Positions 13,490-32,783 of a stretch of 64,000 bases of DNA are shown one piece after another. The DNA is from a virus. Lineage: Duplodnaviria; Heunggongvirae; Uroviricota; Caudoviricetes. The translations under genes were made by a program, and so were the position numbers. A model generated the notes under the pieces. It searched no databases, was not told the origin of the DNA, and saw only the letters and a list, made by a program, of their open reading frames with translations. Each line of letters opens with the position of its first letter. Position 1 is the first letter of the stretch. Where the stretch lies: the IMG/VR virus record IMGVR_UViG_3300029305_004950, positions 125,430 to 189,429 of that record. One strand, written 5' to 3'.

Positions 13490-15019
13490 ATGGCGACTAA
13501 AAAGAATCTAACATATAACGAAGATAGTATTAAAGTCCAAGAATATCCTGATAATGTAAGATCTAATCCTACAGTCTATATCAGTAGTCTTGGTAAAGAA
13601 GGTAATACGCATCTACTAAGAGAAGTAATTGATAACTCTATTGATGAATTCCTAAATGGTTTTGGTAAAACAATTACAATTGAAATTTCCAATAAAAAAG
13701 GTGTATTTAGAGTAATTGATGAAGGTCGTGGTGTTCCTCCTAAATCTATTGAAAGAGCATTTACTACATTACATGCTTCAGGTAAATTCGATAAAGATAG
13801 TTATAGCACATCAGGTGGTCAGCATGGTCTTGGTAGTACATGTGTTAATGCACTTAGTAAGTATTTCCTTGTCATTACACATGAAGGTGGTCATGAATAC
13901 TCTCAAAGATTTGAATATGGTAAGAAAGTAACTGAACTAAAAGATTTAGGAAAGTCTGATAAGGTAGGTACTATTGTAGAGTTTTGTCCTGATGAATCTG
14001 TAATGGATACATTTGAGATTGACATTGAATCAGTCAAAGATGAATGTAAGATGAAGTCTTTTATCAATAAAGGACTTACTATCATTATTAAGGACATGGA
14101 TGAAAAGAAACAGGCTAAGTATTATCATAAAGATGGTATTGAGGAATACGTACAGTTAAATGCTAAGAAAGCTCTATTTAATCCTATTACATTCTCTACA
14201 TCAACTACTGTTAACAAGGCTAATAAAGAATTGAATGTAGAAATCGATTGTTCCTTTACTTATGATAACTCTACTGATCCTATCAATATTAAATCCTTCT
14301 GTAATTCCATTTATACTAGTGATGGCGGTACTCATGAAACTGGTTTTAAAACAGCTCTTACTAGTTTGATTAAAAAGTATATTGCTGATAATAACCTACT
14401 AACTAAAAAAGATGCAAATCTAGACATTACTGGTGATTCAGTTCAGGAAGGTGTAGTAGCAGTAGTATCTATCAAACATCCTCATCCGATGTATGATCAG
14501 CAGTCTAAGAAAAAGCTTAACTCTACAGAAGTTTCTGGTGCAGTAATGAAAGCAGTTAATGCAGAATTTAGTAAGTGGATTGAAACCCATGCTAAAGAAA
14601 TGAAAGTACTTTGTACTAAAGTAATTGAATCTGCAAAGGCTAACAGTGCTGCTAAGAGAGCTAAAGAACTAGCTAATAAGAAATCTGAAAATGGAATTAC
14701 TGCTGTTTCTGATCTATCAAAATTAGCTAACTGTATTTCTAAGAAACCTGAAGAATGTGAACTGTTTGTAGTTGAGGGTAATTCTGCAAGTTCAAGTGCT
14801 AGAAATGGTAGAGATAAGCAAACTCAGGCTGTTTATGCTCTAAGAGGTAAGATTCTCAATACTAACAATCTAGCTGAAACTAAGATTTTTGAAAATAAGG
14901 AACTATCAGATTTGATTTATATCTTAACTGGTAAGAAAACTGCAATTGGTAAGAATTTCAATGTTGAAGACATGAAGTATCATAAACTGGTAGCCTTGAC
15001 TGATGCTGACGATGACGGT
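13490..15019 (+). CDS. gyrB: type II topoisomerase ATPase subunit (GyrB/ParE-like), exon 1
   Basis: GHKL ATPase motifs EVIDNSIDE, GRGVP, GGQHGLGS; Toprim EGNSASSS and DADDDG. The reading frame hits a stop two codons after the conserved DADxDG motif; the downstream ORF supplies the rest (HIASLILGF...PPLY). Confidence 0.88.
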
Positions 15020-16310
15020 AAATGACACATTAAGTCTGCATCAGTGAGAAATTTTCTAACAATACATTAGTATTAATGTTAGGAGGTTTCATTCAAATGA
15101 AAAATGAAAAAGAAACTAAAGAAAGATATGCTTCTGGTATTGAAAATTGTAAAAAACAAGCTCAAAATCTTAAACAAAAAGCATCTGAAAAATTTTTAAG
15201 TAAAGTTTACGAACAAGTTGGTGATGATTATACTTTTCTGGAAACTTATGTAACGAGTAAAACTAAACTCTGGGTAATACATAATGTTTGTGGACATAAG
15301 TATAGAGTAACTCCAAATGAGTTTACTTCTCATAAAAGACGTTGTCCAAACTGTGCAAATAAAAAAAGAGTACTTAATACTGGAATAAAACCTCATACAT
15401 TAGAATCTATTATTGAAAGTGTAAAAGAATTATCTAATGACGAATATGAGGTAGTTAGTAATGAGTATGAAAATAATAAAGAAAAAATTTGGGTTAGACA
15501 TAAAACATGTAGTTATTCATACCTTGTTCGTTATAATGACTTTCAGCAAGGATATAGATGTCCTTTATGTGCTGACATGAATAAAAGTCAGAATAATTCT
15601 AAACCAATACAGGATATTAAAAGTGTTCTAGATTTTAATAAAATTGAGTATGAATCAGAAGTGTCATTTGAAGAATGTGTAGACAAACGTTTTCTTCCAT
15701 TTGATATATTGGTTTATACTGATAAAGTCAATGATGAATACTTTTTAATTGAGTATGATGGACAACAACATTCTGATCCTAATGCACAATTTGGAGGAAC
15801 TAAAGAAGAAAGACTTATTAGATTTGAGCTAACTCAAAAACATGACACTATAAAAAATGCTTTTTGTGAAGAAAACAGTATAAAACTTTATAGAATTTCT
15901 TATAAAGAAGATTTGATGAGCAAACTAAGAAGTATATTGGAAGAAAATAATCTAATTTGACTTGCAGTGAATGCCGTCTAAAAACCTAGTTAACTGCGGG
16001 AAACTATCAATAAACACTATTTACTAAACTAAGATAGTAATATACTTAGTGGCAATGGGTAACTCCAAAGATATAGTAAAAAGAATAGTGTTTGATACAA
16101 TCGACGCAACGAAGTATCCTACATTTAGTAAAAGATAGGATATGAGTTCAACGACTATCGAAACCAACTAACTTAATGTTAGTAATAAGGTAAGTTGAAA
16201 TACTTACACGAAGGGAGTAGAGTAGGGAAATGTAAATTACAAAGTACCGAAAAGCTAGGCTATACTAATTTAGTATAGAAAATATAGTCTAAATTATGCA
16301 AAGTAATTTG
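15020..16310 (+). mobile_element. group I self-splicing intron with homing-endonuclease ORF in the P1 loop
   Basis: Internal guide GCCGTC (15973-15978) complements the exon-1 end GACGGU with a terminal U-G pair. P-like element AACTGCGGGAAAC (~15992), R element GTTCAACGACTA (16146-16157), S element AAAATATAGTCT (~16279). The intron ends in G (16310), giving an in-frame join DADDDG|LHIASLILGF. Confidence 0.75.
15097..15960 (+). CDS. intron-encoded homing endonuclease candidate: two Zn-ribbon-like modules plus a PD-(D/E)xK (Vsr/DUF559-like) nuclease domain
   Basis: ATG at 15097 with TAGGAGG RBS. Duplicated W..H..C..Y.V....F....RCP.CA modules; C-terminal RFLPFDILVY...LIEYDGQQH resembles the restriction-endonuclease-like fold core. 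Confidence 0.55.
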   Translation: MKNEKETKERYASGIENCKKQAQNLKQKASEKFLSKVYEQVGDDYTFLETYVTSKTKLWVIHNVCGHKYRVTPNEFTSHKRRCPNCANKKRVLNTGIKPHTLESIIESVKELSNDEYEVVSNEYENNKEKIWVRHKTCSYSYLVRYNDFQQGYRCPLCADMNKSQNNSKPIQDIKSVLDFNKIEYESEVSFEECVDKRFLPFDILVYTDKVNDEYFLIEYDGQQHSDPNAQFGGTKEERLIRFELTQKHDTIKNAFCEENSIKLYRISYKEDLMSKLRSILEENNLI

Positions 16311-17135
16311 CTTCACATTGCAAGCCTTATCTTAGGATTTGTATATAGACATGCTAAACCCATTTTGGAAAAAGGTTACATGTATATTGCAATGCCTCCT
16401 CTTTATTCTATCATTGAAAGAAATAAGAAACGTTATTTCTTAAATCAAGAGGAATATGATGCATATATTGAGGAAAAGATTTTTGAAAACTATGTATTTA
16501 GTTGTAATGAGATAGGTTTAAATAAGACTAAAGCTAAAACCATTCTTAAGAATTTTGAAACTTACAAAAACAAAGTAAGTGAACTATCTACTAGTACAGG
16601 TATCAATATGTATTTAATTGATGATGTATGTGATTATTTACGTACTAATGAAAATGCAACAAGTAAGGATATTGTGAATTTATTAAAACAGATTGGTGAT
16701 TTTGAATTCTTTAAGAATGATGAAGGAAATTCTGAGATTAATGGTCTTTATGATAATAGCTTTGTAAATGCAGTAATTAAGGATTTAGTAAAGTCTGCTA
16801 AAAAAGCTAAGAAGATTCTAGAAGATCTTAGTATTCCTGAAGAAGTATTCATCAATGATTATCATCTATCAATTAAGAACTATCAAGACATGTATAACAA
16901 GGTTACACCTAAGTCCAGAAGTCGATTCAAAGGCTTGGGAGAAATGGATGCTAATGAACTTTGGGAAACTACTCTTGATCCTTCAGTTAGAAACATTATG
17001 CAAGTTGTACTATCAGATGAAGAAAAGACAGATGATACTATGGATACACTACTAAATTCTAATAGTAAGTATGCAGACAAACGTAAAGTATTCTTAATGA
17101 AAAATCAGCAAAAGATTAAGGAATTAGAAATCTAA
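16311..17135 (+). CDS. gyrB: type II topoisomerase subunit B, exon 2 (C-terminal)
   Basis: HIASLILGFVYRH...YMYIAMPPLY... matches the GyrB region following DADVDG(S)HI; the KGLGEMDANELWETTLDP block matches the GyrB C-terminus. Confidence 0.85.
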   Translation, partial: LHIASLILGFVYRHAKPILEKGYMYIAMPPLYSIIERNKKRYFLNQEEYDAYIEEKIFENYVFSCNEIGLNKTKAKTILKNFETYKNKVSELSTSTGINMYLIDDVCDYLRTNENATSKDIVNLLKQIGDFEFFKNDEGNSEINGLYDNSFVNAVIKDLVKSAKKAKKILEDLSIPEEVFINDYHLSIKNYQDMYNKVTPKSRSRFKGLGEMDANELWETTLDPSVRNIMQVVLSDEEKTDDTMDTLLNSNSKYADKRKVFLMKNQQKIKELEI

Positions 17136-20880: not shown

Positions 20881-23800
20881 ATGGCACAGAATGTAATTCA
20901 AAAGGATATTGTTGATATTCAAAAAGACAATATGCTTCAGTATATGATGTCTCTAATGTATGATAGAGCGATTCCTGATATTAGAGATGGATTAAAACCA
21001 GTACAGAAATTTATCCTTTGGAGTTGTTACAGTTCAGGTTTCTTTCCAAATAAACCCCATGTAAAGTGTGCTAAGATTGCTGGTGATGTTATTGCTAACT
21101 TCCATCCACATTCACTAGATGCAGCTTATGAAGCATTGTGTAGACTTGCTCAGACTCATTCTATGAATATTCCATTAATTGATTTTCATGGTGCATGTGG
21201 TTCTATTGATGGATCAGGCGCAGCAGCTCATAGATATTGTGTGACTGGTGATACCTTAATTAGTCTACCAAATGGTAAATTAAAAAGAATTGATGAACTA
21301 ATTGAAAATTCTAATGATGATTCAACTATGGATGTAGATTTTGAAGTATTAGATTTTAAAAATAATCCAGTACATGTTTCTAAATTCTTTAATTCTGGAA
21401 AACATGATATAATCAAGATTAAAACCAGTTCTGGTTGTACTATTAGAGGTAGTTATAATCATCCTATCTTGTGTTTATATAAAAATCCTACTGATGGTCT
21501 ACCAGAATTCAGATGGACAACTTTAGATAAAATTGAAACTGGATGTTATGCTGTTATAGCATCTAAATTCAATAATTCTTTTAATGAAACTATAAGTGAA
21601 GAAGAAAAGCTTAAAGCAATTTTCTTTGGTGGAATGGTTTCTGAAGGAGGTTTATCTAAAAATCAGAGATACTATAGAGTAAGTTTCTCCAATCAAGATA
21701 ATGAATACTATAATCTAGTGGAATCTGGATATAAAGTATATCTTGAAGAGAATAATCTAAGTAATTTGAATATTCGTATTAATCCAAATGCTCGTGGTGG
21801 AGTTAAAGAATTTTGTACTGAAGACAAAAATCTTCATAATTTAGTTAAAGAACAAATTGGTGAAGATGCTCATAATAAACAGATTCCTCCCTATGTTCTA
21901 AACTCTAATTTAGAAATTCAAAGATGGTTTTTAAAGGCACTTTTTGAAGGAGATGGAGGAGTAACATGTCGTTTAGATAAAAGAAGAAAAGATAATGTTA
22001 CTGGACATGTATTTTATTCTACTTCTTCAACAAAACTTTTGAATGAATTAAAAATTCTATTAATGAATTTTGGTATTAGAACTAAAGTTACTAAAGACAG
22101 ATCTAATTTTAAACTTACAATTTATTCTTTAACTGACATGAAAATTTTTAAAGAAAAAATAGGATTTTTAAGTGATAGAAAAAATAAAGTATTGAATGAA
22201 TTAGTAGAAAATAAAGAAATACAAATTACTAAGTCTTATGGTGTTTCTTCTTCAGATAAAATTCCATATCTTGCCGAATTCATTAGAAATAATAAACTTA
22301 GAAATACACATTATTTAAAGTCTCATAGCCTAAATTGTAAACAAGATATAGATAAACATAATGATGTAATTAAAGATTCTTTGAGTTATGAAGAATATTT
22401 TAAGCTTATGAGAAAACTTGAAGTTTTAGATTTATACCATTATGAAGAAATTATTGAAGTTGAAAGACTACCAGAAGAAGTAGTATATTCAATTAAAGTA
22501 GATTCTAATGATCATAGTTTTATTAGTAATGGTTTTATTAGTCATAATACTGAGGCAAAACTTAGTAAATATGGATTAGATATTCTTAGTGAAATCGATA
22601 AGGATGCTGTTGATTTTGAAAAGAACTATGATGTAACTAAAGATCAACCAACTGTTTTACCTGCAGTAATTCCTAATATCCTATTGAATTCTTCAATGGG
22701 TATTGCAGGTGGTTATGCTTCTTCAATTCCTCCACATAACATCAAGGATGTATGTAATACTGTATGTGAACTAATTGATAATCCTAATATGTCAGTTCAA
22801 GATGTAGCTAAGAAACTAGTTCCTGACTTTCCTACAGGTGGTATCTTATGTTCTAAGAAGGAAATTGAAAAAGCTTACATTACTGGTCAGGGTTCAGTAA
22901 AACTAAGAGGTAGAGCAACTATCAATAGAAATAAGAATAACACATCAGAAATTGTTATTACTGAAATTCCATTTATGACTACAATTGGTCCTCGTATGAG
23001 TGGCACATCTACTAATACTGAGGGTGGTTTGATTAATTCCATTGTAGCTAAGATTAAAGATGGTACAATTGATGGAATTAAGGATATTCACGATATTTCT
23101 GATAAGAATGGTCTATGTATTAAAGTTTTTATCAAGAAAGATTATGACCCTGATGTTATTCTAAATCAGTTATACAAGTTCACTCAGTTAGAATCTACTT
23201 TTAAGATCATTCTAGTTTGTAAGAATGGTAATTTCTTTAAGGTTTATAACATCAAGGAAATTCTAACTGAATGGATTGAATTCCGTGTATCTACTATTAG
23301 ACGTATCATTACACATGATATCAAGAAAGCTAAGTATCGTGAACATATTCTAGAAGGTCTATTAAAAGCATTAACTGATATCGATACTGTTATTAGTATC
23401 ATTAAGAAAGCTAATGGAAGAGCTGATGCTAAAGTAAAGTTAGTTAGGAAATATGGATTTACTGATTTACAGGTTGAAGCTATTCTTGACATGAAACTTT
23501 CTCAGTTAAACTCTCTAGATGGAAAGAAGCTAGAAGAAGAAAAACTAAGTAAGCAAAAAGAAATTCTAGAACTAAAAGAGAATTGGAAAGAATCCAATAT
23601 CTATGAAAGAATTAAGAAAGAACAGAAAGAATTTGCTAAAAAATATGGTAGTGAAAGAAAGACTACTGTAGAAGAGATTGATACTGATATTACTACTGAA
23701 GACATTATTGCTGATGAAGATACTTTGATTGTCATTACTCAGGGTAATTACATTAAGCGTATTTCAAATGAGTTTAGAACTCAGAAACGTGGTACTCAGG

Positions 23801-24696
23801 GTATTTCTATTGGTGATAACTCTATCACAGAAATGTTCTCTGCTTCTACTAAGGATCATCTACTATGTTTTACTAATACTGCCAGAGTCTATGATTTAAA
23901 AGCTTATGACATTAAAGAATCTAAGGATCTTAAAGCTAAGGGTTTAAGAATTGAAAATTATCTAAATCTAAAAGAAAATGAAACAGTTACTAACATTCTA
24001 TGTATCAATAATACACAGATGAATGATAATGAATCCTTCCTAGTTTTCGCTACTAAGAATGGTATGATTAAGAAAACTAAGTTAGAAGAATTCAATAACA
24101 TTCGTTCTACTGGTATTATTGCTTTGATGTTAAAGTCTGGTGATGAACTAGTTTCTGTAAAGTATATTGATACTAGTAAACCTATGCAAGATATCTTGAT
24201 TTCTACTAAAAATGCTCAGACAGTTAGATATGATCATGAAGAAATCAAAGAATTAGGTAGAAATACCTATGGTGTAATTGGTATTAATCTAGAAAATGAT
24301 GACCGTATTACAGATATGTGTATCATTGAAGATGACGAACAACTAATCTTCTTTGCTACTAAAAATGGTTTAGGTAAAACTATTCGTATTACTGATAATG
24401 TAGAAAAAGTTGATCCCAATACTAAAGAAAAAGTAATCATCAATGATGGTTTTCCTAGACTAAAACGCTCATCCAACATTAAAGGCAGACTATGCATGAA
24501 ACTAAAAGAAAATGACGAATTAGTTTCAATGGTAGCTATCAATAATGTAAATGACGAACTAATGATTGTTACTGATAGCAAACTATTAGTAGTCAATACT
24601 GAAGAATTCAAAGAACCTTTAAAGAGACCTACTTATGGTAAGAAATTAGTTAGTTTGACTAATGAAGACTATGTAAGAAAGGTGATTCTAAAGTGA
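20881..24696 (+). CDS. gyrA: type II topoisomerase subunit A (GyrA/ParC-like) interrupted by an in-frame intein
   Basis: The extein reads ...GSGAAAHRY|TEAKLSKYGLD, matching GyrA AAMRYTEARL around the catalytic Tyr. A C-terminal beta-pinwheel region is present. Extein is about 834 aa after removing the 437-aa intein. Confidence 0.88.
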   Translation: MAQNVIQKDIVDIQKDNMLQYMMSLMYDRAIPDIRDGLKPVQKFILWSCYSSGFFPNKPHVKCAKIAGDVIANFHPHSLDAAYEALCRLAQTHSMNIPLIDFHGACGSIDGSGAAAHRYCVTGDTLISLPNGKLKRIDELIENSNDDSTMDVDFEVLDFKNNPVHVSKFFNSGKHDIIKIKTSSGCTIRGSYNHPILCLYKNPTDGLPEFRWTTLDKIETGCYAVIASKFNNSFNETISEEEKLKAIFFGGMVSEGGLSKNQRYYRVSFSNQDNEYYNLVESGYKVYLEENNLSNLNIRINPNARGGVKEFCTEDKNLHNLVKEQIGEDAHNKQIPPYVLNSNLEIQRWFLKALFEGDGGVTCRLDKRRKDNVTGHVFYSTSSTKLLNELKILLMNFGIRTKVTKDRSNFKLTIYSLTDMKIFKEKIGFLSDRKNKVLNELVENKEIQITKSYGVSSSDKIPYLAEFIRNNKLRNTHYLKSHSLNCKQDIDKHNDVIKDSLSYEEYFKLMRKLEVLDLYHYEEIIEVERLPEEVVYSIKVDSNDHSFISNGFISHNTEAKLSKYGLDILSEIDKDAVDFEKNYDVTKDQPTVLPAVIPNILLNSSMGIAGGYASSIPPHNIKDVCNTVCELIDNPNMSVQDVAKKLVPDFPTGGILCSKKEIEKAYITGQGSVKLRGRATINRNKNNTSEIVITEIPFMTTIGPRMSGTSTNTEGGLINSIVAKIKDGTIDGIKDIHDISDKNGLCIKVFIKKDYDPDVILNQLYKFTQLESTFKIILVCKNGNFFKVYNIKEILTEWIEFRVSTIRRIITHDIKKAKYREHILEGLLKALTDIDTVISIIKKANGRADAKVKLVRKYGFTDLQVEAILDMKLSQLNSLDGKKLEEEKLSKQKEILELKENWKESNIYERIKKEQKEFAKKYGSERKTTVEEIDTDITTEDIIADEDTLIVITQGNYIKRISNEFRTQKRGTQGISIGDNSITEMFSASTKDHLLCFTNTARVYDLKAYDIKESKDLKAKGLRIENYLNLKENETVTNILCINNTQMNDNESFLVFATKNGMIKKTKLEEFNNIRSTGIIALMLKSGDELVSVKYIDTSKPMQDILISTKNAQTVRYDHEEIKELGRNTYGVIGINLENDDRITDMCIIEDDEQLIFFATKNGLGKTIRITDNVEKVDPNTKEKVIINDGFPRLKRSSNIKGRLCMKLKENDELVSMVAINNVNDELMIVTDSKLLVVNTEEFKEPLKRPTYGKKLVSLTNEDYVRKVILK
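21238..22548 (+). mobile_element. intein (437 aa) with LAGLIDADG homing-endonuclease domain at the GyrA catalytic-Tyr site
   Basis: Starts with Cys (CVTGDTLISLPNG) and ends ...SHN before +1 Thr. Blocks resemble the Mycobacterium GyrA intein (CITGDALVALPEG ... NHPLLCL ... HAFITNGFVSHN). Two LAGLIDADG motifs: FFGGMVSEGG and LFEGDGGV. Confidence 0.85.
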
Positions 24697-26022: not shown

Positions 26023-26220
26023 ATGAAGTATTCAGAATTGGTCGATCAGGTATTCGTAACTTCGGTGGCAGGTGTTGTACCTTATATCGAAGGACATGCT
26101 GGTGTTGGTAAGTCGCAGATGATTAGAGACGTAGCAAATCTCTATCGTGAAAAAGGATTTGAGGAAGTACCTATCGTTACCTTATTCGGTGCGCTACTAA
26201 AAGAGGGAGAGCTTAACTAA
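26023..26220 (+). CDS. MoxR/AAA_5-type ATPase, exon 1 (Walker A)
   Basis: HAGVGKSQMIRDVANL Walker A. The frame stops after 65 codons; the Walker B half lies 1.2 kb downstream. The exact 3' end of the exon is unresolved. Confidence 0.7.
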   Translation: MKYSELVDQVFVTSVAGVVPYIEGHAGVGKSQMIRDVANLYREKGFEEVPIVTLFGALLKEGELN

Positions 26221-27410
26221 AGGTTACAATTCTTTAATAAAGGGGATGTTTTTATGAGAGTAAAAACAAAACCTAATGTTGATGTTGGAGTTACTTTCAC
26301 AAATAACGATGGTTTAGATTTTATAGTAGATGAGATAGTAGAAATAAAAAAGTATGAAAAAATGTGTAAAATCACATTTTTAGAAAGTGGATATTCAGCT
26401 ATAGTTGGTAGTAGTTCTATAACAAAAGGAAGTGTTAAAGATTACTATCAGATAACTATTCTTGGTGTTGCTTGTTTTGGTGATGCTAAAACAAATCCAA
26501 GGCATACTAAGCAAACATATAGAATTTATAAAAACATGTTACATCGTTGCTATGATGAAAAAAACAAAGACTATAATTCATATGGTGGTATTGGTGTTTC
26601 TGTTTGTTCTAATTGGTTGAACTATAACAATTTTCTAAATGACCTTTATGATATTGAAGGATTTGATTTTGAAAAATTTGAAAATGGTGAAATTAGTATG
26701 GACAAAGATAAGAAACAAAAATACATTCCTAAGAATGAAAGAATTTATAGCAAGGAAACATGTTGTTTCATATCTACTAGTGAAAATTCTACTATAAGAA
26801 ATTTCGAAAATAGTCTAAATCCAGAAAAAAGAAAAATTCTTATAACCTATCCAGATGGTAATACTGAAACAATAGATAGAACAGAATTAAAAATCTATTG
26901 TGAAAAAAAGGGTTTTACAAATCCAAACCATATTAGAAGAGTTTTAAGAAAAGAACGTAATTCTTACAAAAACATTAAATTTGAACTTGTAGACTAATGG
27001 GTTCTTCATTAACAAACCTCATGAACTTAAGGTAAGATCTTAAGGTGTGTTACTTATCGTATTAAGTAATGCTAACGGTATCAGTGGAATAAGGATAGTT
27101 TACTATCACGAAGCAGCTGACTAAGAGACTCTACGGTCCAGAAATGGATAGCAGACAATACCGTGCCAAGCTTCTCAAAAGAGATGAAGGTGTACAGACT
27201 ATCGAAACCAACTAGTTTTAAACTAGTAATAAGGTAAGTTGAAATACTTACACGAAGGGAGTAGAGTAGGATAAACAATCCGAAGGATGAGGATCTAGAT
27301 TGTTTCTAGATAAAAGATAGTCGAAAAATCACATAGAAATATGGTAGTGAAAACTACATGATTTTTGCGGTGGTATTCCCGTTCCTAGACGTGATGAAAA
27401 TAGCAAGAAA
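26221..27410 (+). mobile_element. group I intron interrupting the MoxR ATPase gene (boundaries approximate), with endonuclease ORF near its 5' end
   Basis: Core 27000-27400 holds an R-like GTACAGACTATCG (27192-27204) and an S-like AAAGATAGTCG (27313-27323). A 43-nt block AATAAGGTAAGTTGAAATACTTACACGAAGGGAGTAGAGTAGG (27228-27270) is identical to the gyrB intron at 16184-16226. Confidence 0.7.
26254..26997 (+). CDS. intron-encoded endonuclease-like protein (phage HNH/free-standing homing-endonuclease-associated DNA-binding motif)
   Basis: YRIYKNMLHRCYDEKNKDYNSYGGIGVSVCSNWLNYNNFLNDL matches the Y..W..M..RC......Y..YGGRGI.VC..W..F..F..D module common in phage HNH-family endonucleases. Confidence 0.55.
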   Translation: MRVKTKPNVDVGVTFTNNDGLDFIVDEIVEIKKYEKMCKITFLESGYSAIVGSSSITKGSVKDYYQITILGVACFGDAKTNPRHTKQTYRIYKNMLHRCYDEKNKDYNSYGGIGVSVCSNWLNYNNFLNDLYDIEGFDFEKFENGEISMDKDKKQKYIPKNERIYSKETCCFISTSENSTIRNFENSLNPEKRKILITYPDGNTETIDRTELKIYCEKKGFTNPNHIRRVLRKERNSYKNIKFELVD

Positions 27411-28352
27411 ATGATCAACGATTACACTACACATGTTAAAATGCAGCAGATTTTGGATAATGATACTAGAGGTATCAACACAATCCTCTTTATTGACGAG
27501 CTAAATAGATGTGAAGCAGCAGTGAATCAGGAACTCATGCAGTTGATTCTTGACCGTAGAATCAATGAAACGATTCTTCCTGATTCTTGTATTATTGTTG
27601 CAGCAGGTAACCCTGAGTATGACGATGATAACGACTATCAGGTTCAGGTTATGAACGACGCCATGAAGAATCGGTTTGTTAAGTATACACTTGAAGCTGA
27701 TGTAAAGGACTGGCTTAAGTGGGCATCTAACACAAAGGATGATAACAAAACTGGTACAGAAGCAATTGATTCTGACGTAATTGAGTTTATTGCAGAAATG
27801 CCTAATCTACTTCACGATCCTCATAGTAAAGAAGACATCAAGCCCACTCCTAGAGGTTGGGAACTTCTTTCTAAGGTAATGAGACAGATTAAGAATTACT
27901 ATCCTGAAGATTTTGAAAGTATGTTGTTTGAAGCAGCAAAGGGTGTAGTTGGTCAGACTCCTGCAACCCAGCTAATTGGTTTCCTGAGAGATAAGAAGAA
28001 TCCTATTACTTCTACTAAGGATATTTTCAAGTCTTCTGATAAGGAATTTAACAATAACGTACTTAACAAGATTAAGGGTGATACATCCACTAGACAGTTC
28101 GTTATCATTGATCGTTGCATTCGTTACATTAGCGAAAACATTAAGGAATTCAATGATAAGAAGACTGGTGAAAATAGCTGTAAGAGATTCATTGAAGTAT
28201 GTAAGGTACTTCCCAAGGACATCATGGTTGGCGTTCTAAAGAACATTGGTGTTAATCATAAGAATATTCATGATACTTTTACTAAGTATGATGACTATAT
28301 GGATCTATTCTTTGATACCAATAAGAAGACTATGACTGCGGCAAACATCTAA
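27411..28352 (+). CDS. MoxR/AAA_5-type ATPase, exon 2 (Walker B / sensor region to C-terminus)
   Basis: ILFIDELNRCEAAVNQELMQLILDRR...IIVAAGNPEYDD matches the MoxR vlLaDEiNRa...ATqNP pattern. The frame is open upstream to 27351, so the true 3' splice site lies between about 27351 and 27411. Confidence 0.75.
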   Translation: MINDYTTHVKMQQILDNDTRGINTILFIDELNRCEAAVNQELMQLILDRRINETILPDSCIIVAAGNPEYDDDNDYQVQVMNDAMKNRFVKYTLEADVKDWLKWASNTKDDNKTGTEAIDSDVIEFIAEMPNLLHDPHSKEDIKPTPRGWELLSKVMRQIKNYYPEDFESMLFEAAKGVVGQTPATQLIGFLRDKKNPITSTKDIFKSSDKEFNNNVLNKIKGDTSTRQFVIIDRCIRYISENIKEFNDKKTGENSCKRFIEVCKVLPKDIMVGVLKNIGVNHKNIHDTFTKYDDYMDLFFDTNKKTMTAANI

Positions 28353-28471: not shown

Positions 28472-29641
28472 TTGACTGATAAAGAATTGGAATTTGTAAA
28501 AAAGTTTCTAGATTTTAAAGAAGCTACTGAAAACAGTTACTACTATGATCGTTATATAACACCAAGTGATGTTATGAAGTTTTTACAACCAGATGCAAGA
28601 AGAAACTATAAAGATGCTTGTAACATACTTTCTTATGAAGATAGAATAGATTTAGCAAAAATCTATCTAGAAAGAATAGTAAGTATGACATTTAGTAACA
28701 ATTTTGGTTACTATAAAAATAGTCATAATAGTAATAAAGGTTACTATGAAACGATGTTATCCAATAGTGGAATTGACTGTTATGTTGATGTAGCTAAAAC
28801 AAATGAAGAAGGTTTTCCATTAGAGTTCAACAAGAAAAATGAGAACTTTTTCTATATCTTCTTAGATGGTCTCTATAAGTATTGGGATAAGCAGTTAGAA
28901 TACTATAAAAACAATCAACAAGAAGCTGTAGAGATTATGTTTGAATCTCAATGTAATGGTACTTGGTTTTACTATAACCATTTCAACTATAACTTCCTAA
29001 AAGTATATCTAGAATATCTGAAATCTAGAGGATTTAAGATTAACATCTTTGAGCTTTTCAATAAGAAACTCAAAAGAGTTATAAAAAGTATGGATAAAGG
29101 TTTAGCACATTATACTAAATCTTATCTATTTGAAAGTTTAGCTATAATCTTTGATTTCTATAATGCTATTCTAGATATCTATGGAGAAGATAATGAAAAA
29201 GTAATCAATAAGCTACAGAACAATCTAATCACTATTTTCAAAGATGAAATAGAAACTGAGAAATTTGGTTTCATGAATACTTTCTTATACACAAAGAGGT
29301 GGACTAACAATAGTAAGAATAGAAGTTCTGAATCAACTAGTGATGTAGTTCATTTCTGGGAGTATGTTTACAATAATGAACTAAATCCTACTTTAAAACG
29401 TATCTTCTTGAATGCAATAATTCATACTTGGAATAAGTCACCTATTCCAAAAGTAAGAAACTCAATGCAGTTACTAGTGGATTTAGCAACTTATAAATAT
29501 GATGGAAGATCAGGATTTCCATACCATAATCAAAGATTGTTCTATAATGACATAATTGCAAATGCAAACATGCTAAAGAAATCTGTTAAATCTATACTAT
29601 TTTCTAAAGCAATTCTAGAAGAAGGAGGTTTATTTCTATAA
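28472..29641 (+). CDS. hypothetical protein (389 aa) between the ATPase and VWA genes
   Basis: TTG start with AAAGGAGA RBS. Confidence 0.5.
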   Translation: MTDKELEFVKKFLDFKEATENSYYYDRYITPSDVMKFLQPDARRNYKDACNILSYEDRIDLAKIYLERIVSMTFSNNFGYYKNSHNSNKGYYETMLSNSGIDCYVDVAKTNEEGFPLEFNKKNENFFYIFLDGLYKYWDKQLEYYKNNQQEAVEIMFESQCNGTWFYYNHFNYNFLKVYLEYLKSRGFKINIFELFNKKLKRVIKSMDKGLAHYTKSYLFESLAIIFDFYNAILDIYGEDNEKVINKLQNNLITIFKDEIETEKFGFMNTFLYTKRWTNNSKNRSSESTSDVVHFWEYVYNNELNPTLKRIFLNAIIHTWNKSPIPKVRNSMQLLVDLATYKYDGRSGFPYHNQRLFYNDIIANANMLKKSVKSILFSKAILEEGGLFL

Positions 29642-31137
29642 TGGCAGCTAAAGTTAGTACTAAGAATACTAGTTTAGAAGACATGAATGTAGAAGAACTT
29701 AAGAAAAGATGCTTAGAATGTGTTAACAACAAGGATCTTAATACTGCAACAAGATACTTTAAAGAGTACATTGAATTGATCATCTTCAATCTATTGATTT
29801 CAGATCACTTCTTTGGTACTTTCATTATCCATATGCAAAGAGAAATTCGTTATGATTTCTATGCACCTGCAGGTGTAACTATCAAAAAAGGTTCTCCATT
29901 ATTGGTAATAAATCCTGCTCTACTACTAAGATATACTCATAAAGAAGTTAAAGCTATTCTAAAACATGAGGTTTATCATCTACTTCATTTCCATCTTCTA
30001 AGAAGTAAAGAGAATAACAATCGTTTTGATAGCTATATTGAGAATATCGTTATGGACGTTGCTATCAACCAGTTCATTCCAGAAATTCCTGATGAATGTG
30101 TTACGTTTGACAATTTCTGTAAACAGTTTAAACTAGATCCTTACAGAGTATCTCGTAAAGAATCTTTTGAGTATTACTTAGAACTAGTAAAGAATAGTGA
30201 TGTATACAAAAAAGATTCTGAACAGTATAAGCAAATGATGAAGGATATTCAGGATATTCTTGATCAGCTTAATGAAAGTATGGGTCAGAATGGTAATGGT
30301 TCTGGTAGTGGCTCTGGATCTGGTGATGGTAAAAATGGTAAAGCTTCTGGAAATGGTTCTGGAAATGGTGGAAAATCCATTCAGGAAATGTTAGATGAAA
30401 TTCTAGATAAGAAATATCCTATTGATCATTCTATCTGGAAAGAATCTGATAGTTCCGATGTTCAGAACATCAAGGAGATCGTTAAGCATATGGTAAATGA
30501 AGCAATCAAGAATTGTGGTAATGTACCTGGCGATCTACAAGAGCTAATCAATAAGATTAATGAACCTACTATCATTAAGTGGCAGGATGAACTAAAGAGA
30601 CTTGTTGGTTCTGTTAAGTGTCCTTATAAACTTACTCCTCTAAGAAGACCTAGAAGACAGCCTGATAGAATGGATCTTAAGGGTAAAATGTCTGATAGAA
30701 AAGTTAAAATCGCAGTTGCTATTGATACTTCTGGTTCTATGGGTGAAAGAGAACTTCAGTTTGTATTCTCTGAAATCTTTAAGATTCTAGAATTGGTTAA
30801 GTTTGAAATGACAATCATTGAATGTGATTATAACGTACAGAGAGTTTATAAGGCTAAGAACCTGCAAGAAGTTGACATGAATGTCAAGGGACGTGGAGGT
30901 ACAGCATTTACACCTGTCTTCAAATATCTTAAGGAAGAAATGCGTCAACAAGATAAACCTGACTTACTGGTTTATTTCACTGACGGATGGGGCGAGTCTT
31001 GTCTTGACGAAAAGTATCATATTAGTAGTAGTACCAAACTAATGTGGGTATTAACAGGACGTAAGAAAGATTTATCATGTTCTGGACATGGTGCTTGGAC
31101 TAATAAGATCAAAGAACTTAAGATGAACGAAAGATAA
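29641..31137 (+). CDS. VWA-domain protein with N-terminal HExxH putative metallopeptidase domain (DUF2201-like MoxR partner)
   Basis: HEVYHLLHFH motif; Gly/Ser/Asn linker; VWA MIDAS region KVKIAVAIDTSGSMG...FTDGWGES. Confidence 0.75.
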   Translation: MAAKVSTKNTSLEDMNVEELKKRCLECVNNKDLNTATRYFKEYIELIIFNLLISDHFFGTFIIHMQREIRYDFYAPAGVTIKKGSPLLVINPALLLRYTHKEVKAILKHEVYHLLHFHLLRSKENNNRFDSYIENIVMDVAINQFIPEIPDECVTFDNFCKQFKLDPYRVSRKESFEYYLELVKNSDVYKKDSEQYKQMMKDIQDILDQLNESMGQNGNGSGSGSGSGDGKNGKASGNGSGNGGKSIQEMLDEILDKKYPIDHSIWKESDSSDVQNIKEIVKHMVNEAIKNCGNVPGDLQELINKINEPTIIKWQDELKRLVGSVKCPYKLTPLRRPRRQPDRMDLKGKMSDRKVKIAVAIDTSGSMGERELQFVFSEIFKILELVKFEMTIIECDYNVQRVYKAKNLQEVDMNVKGRGGTAFTPVFKYLKEEMRQQDKPDLLVYFTDGWGESCLDEKYHISSSTKLMWVLTGRKKDLSCSGHGAWTNKIKELKMNER

Positions 31138-31149
31138 GTGTTAAATTCA

Positions 31150-31190
31150 TACTAGAGACTATAATACAACTTATAGTCTCTAGTATTTTA
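31150..31190 (+). terminator. rho-independent terminator
   Basis: ACTAGAGACTATAA-loop-TTATAGTCTCTAGT plus T's. Confidence 0.55.
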
Positions 31191-31223
31191 CATAAATCAA
31201 AAAATAAAAAGGAGACTTAAAAA

Positions 31224-32783
31224 ATGGCAATTATTATCCCTATCATTATTGGCGTAGTACTATTAGGATTAGTCATTGGTTTCATGTGTATGATTTACAA
31301 GGTAGCTGATATTGACAAGGCATTGATTATTACTGGTGGCAAAGAGCCTAAGATTAAGGTATCTGGTGGTAGTTTTGTAATTCCTATTTTTAGAAGAGCA
31401 CAGTATTTTGATCTTTGTATGCTTACTGTTAAGGCCGATAGAGATGAAATTCGTACTGTAACTTCTGTACCTATTGTTACCGACTGGACTGCTCAGATTC
31501 GTCCTGATACCTCTGATGAAGCAAATCTAAAGAAAGCAATTATGTCTTTTAAAGAACGTGGTCAGGAAGGTATTATTAATGATGTTAAACTAACTCTTAC
31601 TGGCGCTGTTCGTGATATTGTTGCATCTATGACTCCTGAAGCTGTTCTTAAAGATAAGGCTGAATTTGCTCAGAAGGTTCGTGATACTGTTGAAGATGAA
31701 ATGAGAAACATGGGTATGGAACTAGTTTCTCTAAACATTCAAGATATTTCTGATAATAATGGTTACTATGATAACATTGCAGCTCTAGATATGGAAGATA
31801 AGCGTCTATCCGCAGAAACTAAGAAGGCTCAGATTAATCAGGAAGTTCGTAAGAAGAAGGCAGAATCTGAACAAGCTGCTGCTCATTCTGAACTTGCTGC
31901 AAATCTAGCTATTGCTGAAAAGAAACGTGATAATGATCTTAAGAGAGCTGAATTTAAGGCTGAAACTGATACTGCTAATGCAAATGCTGAAATTGCTGGT
32001 AGACTTCAGACAACTAAGAGAGAACAGGAAGTTGCAGAACAGGAAGGTAGAATTCAGGTAATCCGTCAGGAACAGGCTAACTTTGCTGCTCAGAAGGAAA
32101 AGGAAGTTATCATCACTAAGGCACAGGCTGAAAAAGAAAAGAATCAGATTGCAGCTGAAGCAGTAGCTAACATCAAGAAGATTGATGCTGAAGCAAAGGT
32201 TATGGTTGCTGAAAGAGAAGCTAATGCTATTAAGATCAATGCTGATGCTAATGCAGAAAAGGTTAAGAAGGAAGGTCAGGCAACAGCTGATGTTACTAAG
32301 CTAAAGGGTATTGCTGAAGCTGAAGTAGCAAAGGAAAAGGGTCTAGCAGAAGTAGAAGTCATTAAGGAAAAGGGTCTAGCAGAAGCTGAAGCTGAGAAGG
32401 CTAAACTACTAGCTAAGGCAGAAGGTGAAAAGGCTCTAGCAGATGCTCGTGCTTCTAATGAAAAGGTTAACTTCGAAATCGAAAAGCTTAAGATTGAAGC
32501 TGAAGCTAGAGTAACTATTGCTACTAAGACTGCTGAAATTATGGCTGAGATTGGTAAGAATGCTGAATTCGTCAACATCAATGGTTCTTCTCAGGGTACT
32601 CAGAGTGGTAATGTACTAATCGATACTCTTAAAGGTATTCCTGAACTTATGAAGGTTCTTAATGTTGAGAATGAAGCTCTTAATGGTAAGGGTATTAATG
32701 ATGAAGTTAAAGGTATTGTCGAGAGTGTAACTGGTCCTGTAAAGGGATTACTTGTTGACAATTCTAACAAGTCTGATACATAA
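31224..32783 (+). CDS. SPFH/band-7 (flotillin-like) membrane protein with long Ala/Glu/Lys coiled coil
   Basis: N-terminal TM helix (IIIPIIIGVVLLGLVIGFM), band-7 core, then about 200 aa of AEKEK/AEAEA-rich coiled coil, as in flotillin/YqiK. Confidence 0.75.
   Translation: MAIIIPIIIGVVLLGLVIGFMCMIYKVADIDKALIITGGKEPKIKVSGGSFVIPIFRRAQYFDLCMLTVKADRDEIRTVTSVPIVTDWTAQIRPDTSDEANLKKAIMSFKERGQEGIINDVKLTLTGAVRDIVASMTPEAVLKDKAEFAQKVRDTVEDEMRNMGMELVSLNIQDISDNNGYYDNIAALDMEDKRLSAETKKAQINQEVRKKKAESEQAAAHSELAANLAIAEKKRDNDLKRAEFKAETDTANANAEIAGRLQTTKREQEVAEQEGRIQVIRQEQANFAAQKEKEVIITKAQAEKEKNQIAAEAVANIKKIDAEAKVMVAEREANAIKINADANAEKVKKEGQATADVTKLKGIAEAEVAKEKGLAEVEVIKEKGLAEAEAEKAKLLAKAEGEKALADARASNEKVNFEIEKLKIEAEARVTIATKTAEIMAEIGKNAEFVNINGSSQGTQSGNVLIDTLKGIPELMKVLNVENEALNGKGINDEVKGIVESVTGPVKGLLVDNSNKSDT

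Follow-up and report, generated by a model that had tools for sequence, protein, structure and literature searches.

The group I intron in phage T4's td gene, a member of subgroup IA2, interrupts thymidylate synthase and carries the open reading frame (ORF) of the GIY-YIG endonuclease I-TevI in the paired region P6. Other introns split dnaE, the gene for DNA polymerase III alpha, in Bacillus phage G, a Staphylococcus SPbeta-like phage and Clostridium phage CS266P1. Their ORFs lie in the P6 region, and the polymerase intron of phage G has been cited as self-splicing (PMC7824862). Introns of class IA are also found in DNA polymerase genes of SPO1 and the Bastillevirinae, where they carry ORFs for I-HmuI-like or PHROG 2081 proteins (PMC11878797, Table 2). 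In AR9-like jumbo phages (AR9 and MarsHill/Madawaska/Machias) introns are numerous; they are found in genes for RNA polymerase subunits, the prohead protease, DNA polymerase, the large terminase and gyrB, and gyrA is present with an intein or introns (bioRxiv 10.1101/2020.12.14.422802). The locus described here lies in a stretch of 64,000 nucleotides of a Caudoviricetes virus (IMG/VR record IMGVR_UViG_3300029305_004950, positions 125,430 to 189,429), termed the window, which is AT-rich (29% G+C). Positions given below are those of the window, and the features of the locus are on the plus strand. Positions 26214-27367 very probably represent, with a likelihood of about 0.92, a mobile group I intron of T4-td-like (IA2) type in the gene for a MoxR-type AAA_5 ATPase of a jumbo phage related to AR9/PBS1.

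In the ORF list of the window, the ATPase appears as an ORF of 65 amino acids with the Walker A motif GHAGVGKS (26023-26220) and another of 313 amino acids with the Walker B motif ILFIDELNR (27411-28352). A preliminary description had taken the two as parts of a single AAA_5 ATPase gene, and as judged by their motifs and alignments they are the halves of one gene. Each half alone gives AAA matches only below the Pfam threshold. The joined protein displays one continuous AAA_5 match, spanning profile positions 5-139 of 139, at 29.1 bits against a Pfam cutoff of 22.

All junctions in which U precedes the 5′ cut and G precedes the 3′ cut were tried as exon joins. No junction other than 26213|27368 has U at position -1 and G as the last base of the intron (the omega G), keeps the frame and restores the conserved protein sequence ...KEGEL|GGIPVPRRDEN..., and the intron is therefore placed at 26214-27367, a length of 1154 nucleotides. 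Exon 1 (26023..26213), the start of the AAA_5/MoxR-type ATPase, ends in ...KEGEL with the first two bases of the Leu codon. Exon 2 (27368..28352) starts with C GGU GGU AUU, read as (L)GGI, and contains the Walker B motif, the sensor and the C-terminal region; its frame is open upstream of the called ATG at 27411, back to 27351. The alternative junctions 26214|27369, 26214|27372 and 26216|27370 were rejected because they end the intron in a base other than G, lose a residue or break the frame. The interruption of 1.2 kb noticed earlier is thus real, but the coordinates then assigned to it, 26221-27410, delimit the gap between the called ORFs and not the intron. The ligated junction is predicted to read AAAGAGGGAGAGCU|CGGUGGUAUUCC, and the predicted ligated-exon 28-mer is AAAGAGGGAGAGCTCGGTGGTATTCCCG.

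The joined sequence of 391 amino acids was searched against 5.8 billion proteins. Uninterrupted, colinear homologues of 390-391 amino acids are 84-91% identical to it; P0001-P0007 display 87-91% identity at 100% coverage, and many more distant ones were found; the homologues carry PF07728. Three database proteins of 313-320 amino acids are exon-2-only calls, one of them from the window's own sequence. An alignment of 23 sequences is gapless at the junction, which is straddled by the invariant residues E63, G65, G66 and P68. Alignment to intact proteins, which the preliminary description had proposed as a means of locating the junction, leaves 0 residues missing, where a loss of more than 15 had been named as the sign of a pseudogene. 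At the DNA level, two intronless alleles (L001 and L033) read straight through the site, the sequence of L001 being ...AAGGAAGGAGAATTAGGAGGAATACCCGTTCC.... The best cultured relatives of the ATPase are found in Bacillus jumbo phages of the PBS1/AR9 type (35% identity), and the AR9/PBS1 homologue is uninterrupted.

In the Listeria phage LPJP1 (L125, MZ422438.1 8717-9950), a cultured jumbo phage, the ATPase homologue is annotated as three small ORFs. It was considered as a second intron case and rejected; there is instead an in-frame stop just after Walker A and a frameshift near residue 220. The LPJP1 homologue represents either a pseudogene or sequencing errors.

An in-frame ATG at 27411, within exon 2, is used by gene callers, and its presence would suit a truly split gene, whose fragments of 65 and 313 amino acids are translated apart and assemble into an ATPase in trans while the RNA element has some other role. 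Such an arrangement is extremely improbable. The ATG is the conserved Met of ...SKKMINDY... within intact homologues, the 20 codons upstream of it form an open frame that includes the conserved GGIPVPRRDEN, and no Shine-Dalgarno-like motif is evident upstream of it when the sequence is read. Residues between the junction and this Met, among them the invariant G65, G66 and P68, would be lost, and a separate P-loop subunit of 65 amino acids is without precedent in this ATPase family. Other classes of interruption (group II intron, intein and translational bypass) were rejected in view of the lack of a reverse transcriptase, the stops in all frames and the length of 1154 nucleotides.

The intron has the anatomy of a group I ribozyme. 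The exon sequence GGAGAGCU (26206..26213) forms the 5′ strand of P1 and pairs with the internal guide sequence GGUUCUUC (27000..27007), with a U26213.G27000 wobble that marks the 5′ splice site. The 5′ strand of P3, CCUCAU (27017..27022), pairs with AUGAGG (27287..27292), which lies directly 5′ of P8, as in T4 td. A P3 strand placed directly before J3/4, as well as the pairings GUGUG/UACAC and CUCUAC/GUAGAG, were dropped; CCUCAU/AUGAGG was chosen because no other candidate both shows covariation in the family and stands at the position of the td P3′ strand. Two hairpins are present between P3 and J3/4 (27026..27070), provisionally P3.1 (27026-31:27039-44) and P3.2 (27049-56:27063-70). P3.1 is among the recognised optional pairings, and P2 too is optional (PMC3873408).

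J3/4 (GCUAA) and the P4-P6 domain occupy 27071..27189, assigned from the helix map, covariation and likeness to T4 td. The helix map places P4 at 27075-81:27158-64, a hairpin inserted between P4 and P5 at 27082-87:27114-19 with 27094-98:27103-07, P5 with its GAAA loop at 27130-31:27154-55 and 27136-40:27145-49, and P6 at 27171-76:27183-89. An intron core with R- and S-like elements had been noticed in the preliminary description, and both are present (GUACAGACUAUCG and AAAGAUAGUCG). The sequences GTACAGACTATCG at 27192-27204 and AAAGATAGTCG at 27313-27323 pair as P7. The R element, the 5′ strand of P7 (27192..27204), comprises C27195, a bulged A27196 and GACUAU at 27197-27202; the S element (27313..27323), J8/7 with the 3′ strand of P7, contains AUAGUC at 27317-27322 and G27323. 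The features of a guanosine-binding P7, namely C27195-G27323, the bulged A27196 and G27197-C27322, are present at the level of sequence.

Between the 5′ strand of P7 and the P3 3′ strand, which is followed by P8, lie P7.1 and P7.2 (27208..27281), an IA2 trait, and the two align with P7.1/P7.2 of td. P7.1 (27208-09:27257-58) encloses two hairpins, 27211-17:27221-27 and 27234-39:27246-51, and P7.2 is formed by 27269-72:27278-81. The P8 hairpin is at 27293..27311. The 3′ end is a three-way junction (27324..27367) in which P9 (27324-31:27359-66) carries two GAAA-capped hairpins, 27332-43 and 27344-57, with the omega G at 27367. All 21 of the proposed helices are complementary in the window. Minimum-energy folding finds P1 and the long-range CCUCAU/AUGAGG helix unaided, and folding-energy z-scores are -3.9 for the window intron with its ORF removed and -5.6 for a related intron, L005, at the same site.

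The whole T4 td intron, whose sequence was verified against T4 records at 100% identity, was compared with the window intron. The helix order P7 - P7.1 - P7.2 - P3′ - P8 - P7′ is the same in the two. Near-identical blocks are CUAA(A)CGG in J3/4-P4 (CUAACGG in the window), AGACAAU.CCGUGC in J5/4-P4′, GGGAGUAG after P7.1 (GAGUAG), CGAAA/G.GAU before P3′ and AUAGUC in P7′. In both introns the 5′ splice site has a U.G wobble, the last base is G and an endonuclease ORF is looped out. The two differ in the host gene and in the ORF; that of the window intron, of PHROG 2081 type, occupies the P1 loop. In contrast to td, the window intron has no P2, its P3 5′ strand is followed by two hairpins, another hairpin stands between P4 and P5, and P7.1 is branched.

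The dnaE introns are alignable with the window intron over ~130 nucleotides and have the same placement of P3. From P3.2 through J3/4 and P4 to P5 they are 80-87% identical to it over ~65 nucleotides. The P4-P6 core is found, with the same identity of 80-87%, where dnaE of Bacillus phage G, the Staphylococcus SPbeta-like phage and Clostridium phages is split by an unannotated gap, and each of these gaps adjoins endonuclease genes. The differences are in the host gene, in the location of the ORFs (P6 region in dnaE, P1 in the window) and in P7.1, which in the dnaE introns is a simple hairpin lacking the two inserted hairpins.

Other copies of the intron are present at the ATPase site. In L005, the contig of protein P0013, exon 2 is only 64% identical, and an intron of ~419 nucleotides devoid of an ORF occupies the identical position; exon 1 ends in ...GGAGAGCT and, after the intron, the sequence resumes with CGGTGGAATTCCC. 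The P1 pairing, U.G wobble included, is identical in L005. A third copy, in L004, is represented by its last 150 nucleotides. The main difference between the window and L005 consists of ~776 nucleotides between the 5′ splice site and the internal guide sequence, and the endonuclease gene is therefore placed in the P1 loop. Among the three, compensatory changes are found in P3.1, P3.2, P5, P6, P7.1 (CC/GG versus GU/AC), P8, P9, P9a and P9b; in P3, an A-U pair of the window/L005 comparison becomes G.U. The P9 architecture is the same in L005 and L004 and its sequence is different, and P8 is likewise kept as a hairpin of other sequence in these two and in 21 members of the wider family. The exon flank AAAGAGGGAGAGCT|CGGTGG is identical in the two intron-bearing lineages, with synonymous differences in the intronless ones, a pattern that fits constraint by P1 and/or co-conversion during homing.

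Beyond the ATPase site, dozens of phage loci contain the core motifs, where shuffles of the window predict 0, and this class of intron has been seen in more than 80 phage loci. The P4-P6 core motif matches 53 viral contigs. A conserved GAAC is preceded by six bases that pair perfectly with the six just 5′ of P8 in at least 11 sequence versions, each from a distinct dnaE-type intron, for example GAAGGU/GCCUUC, UCUUGU/GCAAGA and CCUAUU/GAUAGG, with CCUCAU/AUGAGG in the window. P3, the pseudoknot partner, stands next to P8, and the topology is that of the P3/P7 pseudoknot, which is defining for group I introns. Covariation in the 5′ domain was counted in 26 sequences and compared with 500 shuffles and with slid controls. 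Paired cells amount to 96.3% versus 81.6% in shuffles and at most 45.5% in slid controls, and the covariation score is 0.393 versus 0.128 in shuffles; no shuffle (0/500) was as high by either measure. Both sides have changed in 14 of 28 pairs, and in the second hairpin, P3.2, all eight pairs covary.

An exact 27-mer in the 3′ domain (P7.1-P7.2) is common to 27 loci of large phage contigs, often with several loci per contig. In 21 distinct copies of this domain, P7.1 reads CC/GG, GC/GC or GU/AC, P7.2 varies, and the inner hairpin of P7.1 and P8 are present as hairpins of unrelated sequence. Exact searches were negative. The pattern AAGCAGCTGACTAAGAGACTCTACGG, which represents the window's own P4-P6 sequence, has 0 matches in viral contigs, and megablast of the intron region against 50,697 phage records gives no match. 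The pattern GCTAACGGTATCAGTGGAATAAGG has no exact match in metagenome contigs, L005's own contig included, and that metagenome collection therefore lacks these samples.

In the outer part of P5 the third pair, 27132:27153, and also 27134:27151, do not behave consistently within the family and were omitted from the map. In the family alignment, C/A at position 27134 covaries with A/U at 27153 (CUACGG...AGCAG versus CUAAGG...AGCUG), combinations that do not fit Watson-Crick pairing in the proposed P5 register. This covariation may reflect a non-canonical or tertiary contact in the J4/5-J5/4 region.

The comparative data bear on the possibility that the ATPase is a pseudogene, into which a free-standing endonuclease gene with flanking DNA was inserted, so that no splicing occurs and the halves are decaying. 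On every contig the locus is called as three separate ORFs, Rfam provides no significant intron match, and the stop and frameshift in LPJP1 indicate that this gene can decay. A pseudogene is nevertheless very improbable. Both halves keep open frames and motifs in lineages at 64% identity and abut with no loss of residues, the insert is a conserved and covarying RNA structure, and the exon flank matches the internal guide sequence. The ORF-less version at the same site, furthermore, is unexplained by insertion of an endonuclease gene. The assignment as a group I intron, first made from the letters of the window, is borne out by its anatomy, covariation and resemblance to T4 td.

The ORF within the intron (26254..26997) is predicted to encode a homing endonuclease of 247 amino acids and occupies the P1 loop (L1). 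A Shine-Dalgarno-like AAGGGG can be read at 26240..26245, 8 nucleotides upstream of its start. The translated sequence matches phrog_2081, 'HNH endonuclease', at 8e-47. In Bacillus, Lactococcus and Staphylococcus phages, homologues with 31-39% identity are found inside or adjacent to polymerase and ribonucleotide reductase genes that are split. PHROG 2081 proteins are encoded by DNA polymerase introns in the Bastillevirinae, and InterPro reports DNA-binding domains only (PMC11878797). An AlphaFold (AF2) model of the protein has a confidence score (pLDDT) of 77, and its best match in the PDB is I-HmuI (1u3e; Foldseek E = 1.3e-3, with a low TM score of 0.19-0.26). A hidden Markov model match to I-HmuI (E = 0.012) covers the C-terminal DNA-binding part only. 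The I-HmuI-like C-terminal module is common to the SPO1/Bastillevirinae introns and the window intron, which differ in host gene and ribozyme sequence; I-HmuI also has a clear HNH motif and the window ORF has none. The 'HNH-associated endonuclease' of the preliminary description is a fair label in view of the family and the I-HmuI-like C-terminal part. As no HNH catalytic motif was detected, the endonuclease assignment rests on family and context. At least 24 contigs encode the identical protein, invariably in the arrangement of 65, 247 and 313 amino acids; they come from several samples of JGI and ENA, the source samples including JGI 3300018878, 3300018475 and 3300018493 and ENA ERZ272483xx.

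In JGI sample 3300018878, an intronless allele (L003, P0006, with a protein 87% identical) and an intron-containing allele (L117) are found together. This is a situation where homing or intron-mediated competition could operate.

Several observations weigh against a mobile, T4-td-like group I intron. No canonical P2 was found between P1 and P3, and no convincing P10 pairing was found in the intron. For the exact ATPase-site intron there are only 2.5 sequences to compare, and the outer part of P5 has partial support, two pairs being covarying or invariant and a third position inconsistent. No Pfam HNH domain is found in the ORF and no HNH/His-Me catalytic motif is detectable in it; its conserved block, LDKDKKQ...YSKETC...EN, contains no His, and nuclease activity of the ORF is uncertain. 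In a survey of Bastillevirinae, 4 of 8 validated introns were spliced only in infected cells (PMC11878797). No Rfam family matches at the gathering score, in scans that used the gathering threshold on the whole window and a permissive E-value mode on 26100-27550 and 26990-27400; the best hit, RF00028, reaches 10.9 bits (E = 3.3) where gathering is 50. As to subgroup, type members of IA2 have P2 between P1 and P3 and a simple P7.1; the window intron has no P2, hairpins after the P3 5′ strand and a branched P7.1.

The weak RF00028 alignment covers P8 and J8/7-P7′ and puts P8 at the position given above. The Rfam negative is itself uninformative, because the same search also misses known introns of this kind: T4 td, used as a positive control (L116), gives no RF00028 match at E<=10, and the permissive search at E<=10 or E<=1 finds none in L005 or in the phage G and SPbeta-like dnaE introns (L060-L062). 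For a related Staphylococcus jumbo phage, too, Rfam is reported to have detected no introns (PMC10638138), and GISSD covariance models specific to subgroups (IA1, IA2 and IA3) have been used elsewhere (PMC11878797). Rfam-based screens of phage introns will miss the whole class, T4 td included.

The same observations lend some weight to a group I intron that is degenerate or dependent, in the sense that splicing needs a phage or host cofactor and/or that the ORF is an inactive relic and the element is no longer mobile. The ORF without detectable HNH residues, with its likeness to I-HmuI confined to the C-terminal part, the splicing confined to infected bacteria in half of the surveyed introns and the lack of P10 all point this way. 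On the other side, the ORF is intact and identical on all of the contigs mentioned, its conserved blocks are common to homologues at 35-42% identity, all core helices are intact, and intron-plus and intron-minus alleles in one sample are compatible with ongoing homing. A degenerate or dependent state is a possibility, though an unlikely one, and a mobile intron remains the preferred reading.

If the intron functions as its structure suggests, the ATPase gene would be transcribed through it, the RNA would fold, and the end of exon 1 would pair with the internal guide sequence as P1. Free guanosine bound in P7 would attack after U26213, the terminal G27367 would dock, and the exons would be ligated as GAGCU|CGGUGG. 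The product would be an mRNA for the ATPase of 391 amino acids, with a layout identical to that of the uninterrupted homologues. The intron ORF, translated from its own ribosome-binding site, most likely encodes a site-specific DNA endonuclease or an I-HmuI-like nickase; the enzyme would cut intronless ATPase alleles in co-infecting relatives, and repair would copy the intron in (homing). The analysis establishes where exactly the gene is interrupted, the covarying RNA architecture, the ORF-less counterpart and the family to which the ORF belongs; from sequence, we infer the catalysis by the intron, any need of splicing for host or phage factors, and the activity and target of the endonuclease.

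A second group I intron is present in the window. A gyrB-like gene is split into 13490-15025 and 16296-17135, with an inferred intron span of 15020-16310 and the junction ...TDADDDG|LHIASL.... Its ORF (15076-15960) encodes 294 amino acids with a treble-clef zinc finger, DUF4379. The gyrB and ATPase introns have an identical P7.1-P7.2 stretch of ~60 nucleotides, the same P7/P8 layout and an ORF near the 5′ end. They differ in the P3-P6 half, which is unrelated, in the type of ORF and in P9, which is a single hairpin in gyrB.

The 3′-half type of the ATPase intron is common to this gyrB intron and to multi-copy introns of other jumbo phages. The 5′ half matches the 53 viral loci of the dnaE-intron type (L063-L115), and the 3′ half matches 27 loci on jumbo-phage-sized contigs (L006-L032). 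That the two halves belong to differing families suggests mosaic introns formed by recombination between co-resident introns. Put tentatively, the ATPase intron might be a mosaic caught becoming mobile, with a 5′ half (P3.2-P6) of the type of dnaE introns in Firmicutes phages and a 3′ half (branched P7.1-P7.2) of gyrB type.

The window further contains a gyrA-like gene (20881-24696) whose product of 1271 amino acids carries an intein with a LAGLIDADG domain (Pfam Intein_splicing, LAGLIDADG_3); the same arrangement is found in the Staphylococcus jumbo phage MarsHill. The phage of the window and the AR9-like jumbo phages are of the same lineage, and they have in common numerous introns, a gyrB intron and a gyrA intein. 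The published intron repertoire of the AR9-like phages does not list a MoxR-type ATPase.

Downstream of the ATPase gene, in 28472-32783, are genes for a protein of 389 amino acids without a Pfam match, a DUF2201_N/DUF2201 protein and an SPFH/Band 7 protein (31224-32783). The first two stand in the same order beside the intronless homologue. The second, a partner gene at 29641..31137, two genes downstream of the ATPase, encodes by its Pfam domains a putative metallopeptidase (DUF2201_N) with a vWA-like domain (DUF2201); the pairing of ATPase and partner is also present in L001. A MoxR-vWA(-peptidase) chaperone pair has been described in jumbo phages, with a proposed role in virion assembly (PMC7824862), and the downstream metallopeptidase-vWA gene therefore supports the label 'MoxR-type'.

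The preliminary description considered a MoxR ATPase an unusual host gene. A literature search found no paper reporting an intron in a MoxR-type ATPase gene, but 'very unusual' overstates the case, as introns outside DNA metabolism are known in terminase (PMC11878797), in capsid and tail genes (PMC3706429) and in the prohead protease. The element is of an ordinary mobile kind in a host gene not previously listed for group I introns, and the current understanding of how such elements work is unchanged.

For annotation, the finding means that three ORFs called apart on at least 24 public contigs are one ATPase gene of 391 amino acids and an intron-borne endonuclease gene. The phage genes known to be colonised by group I introns are joined by that of a proposed virion-assembly chaperone, the MoxR-type partner of a vWA-metallopeptidase, and at a single site an ORF-less intron can be matched with one that contains an ORF. 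If the mosaic origin is true, the locus would document domain shuffling between co-resident introns and, as a separate and later event, the entry of an endonuclease gene into an intron already in place. The element would then also be one used in competition between co-infecting jumbo phages, given that intron-plus and intron-minus alleles are present in the same sample.

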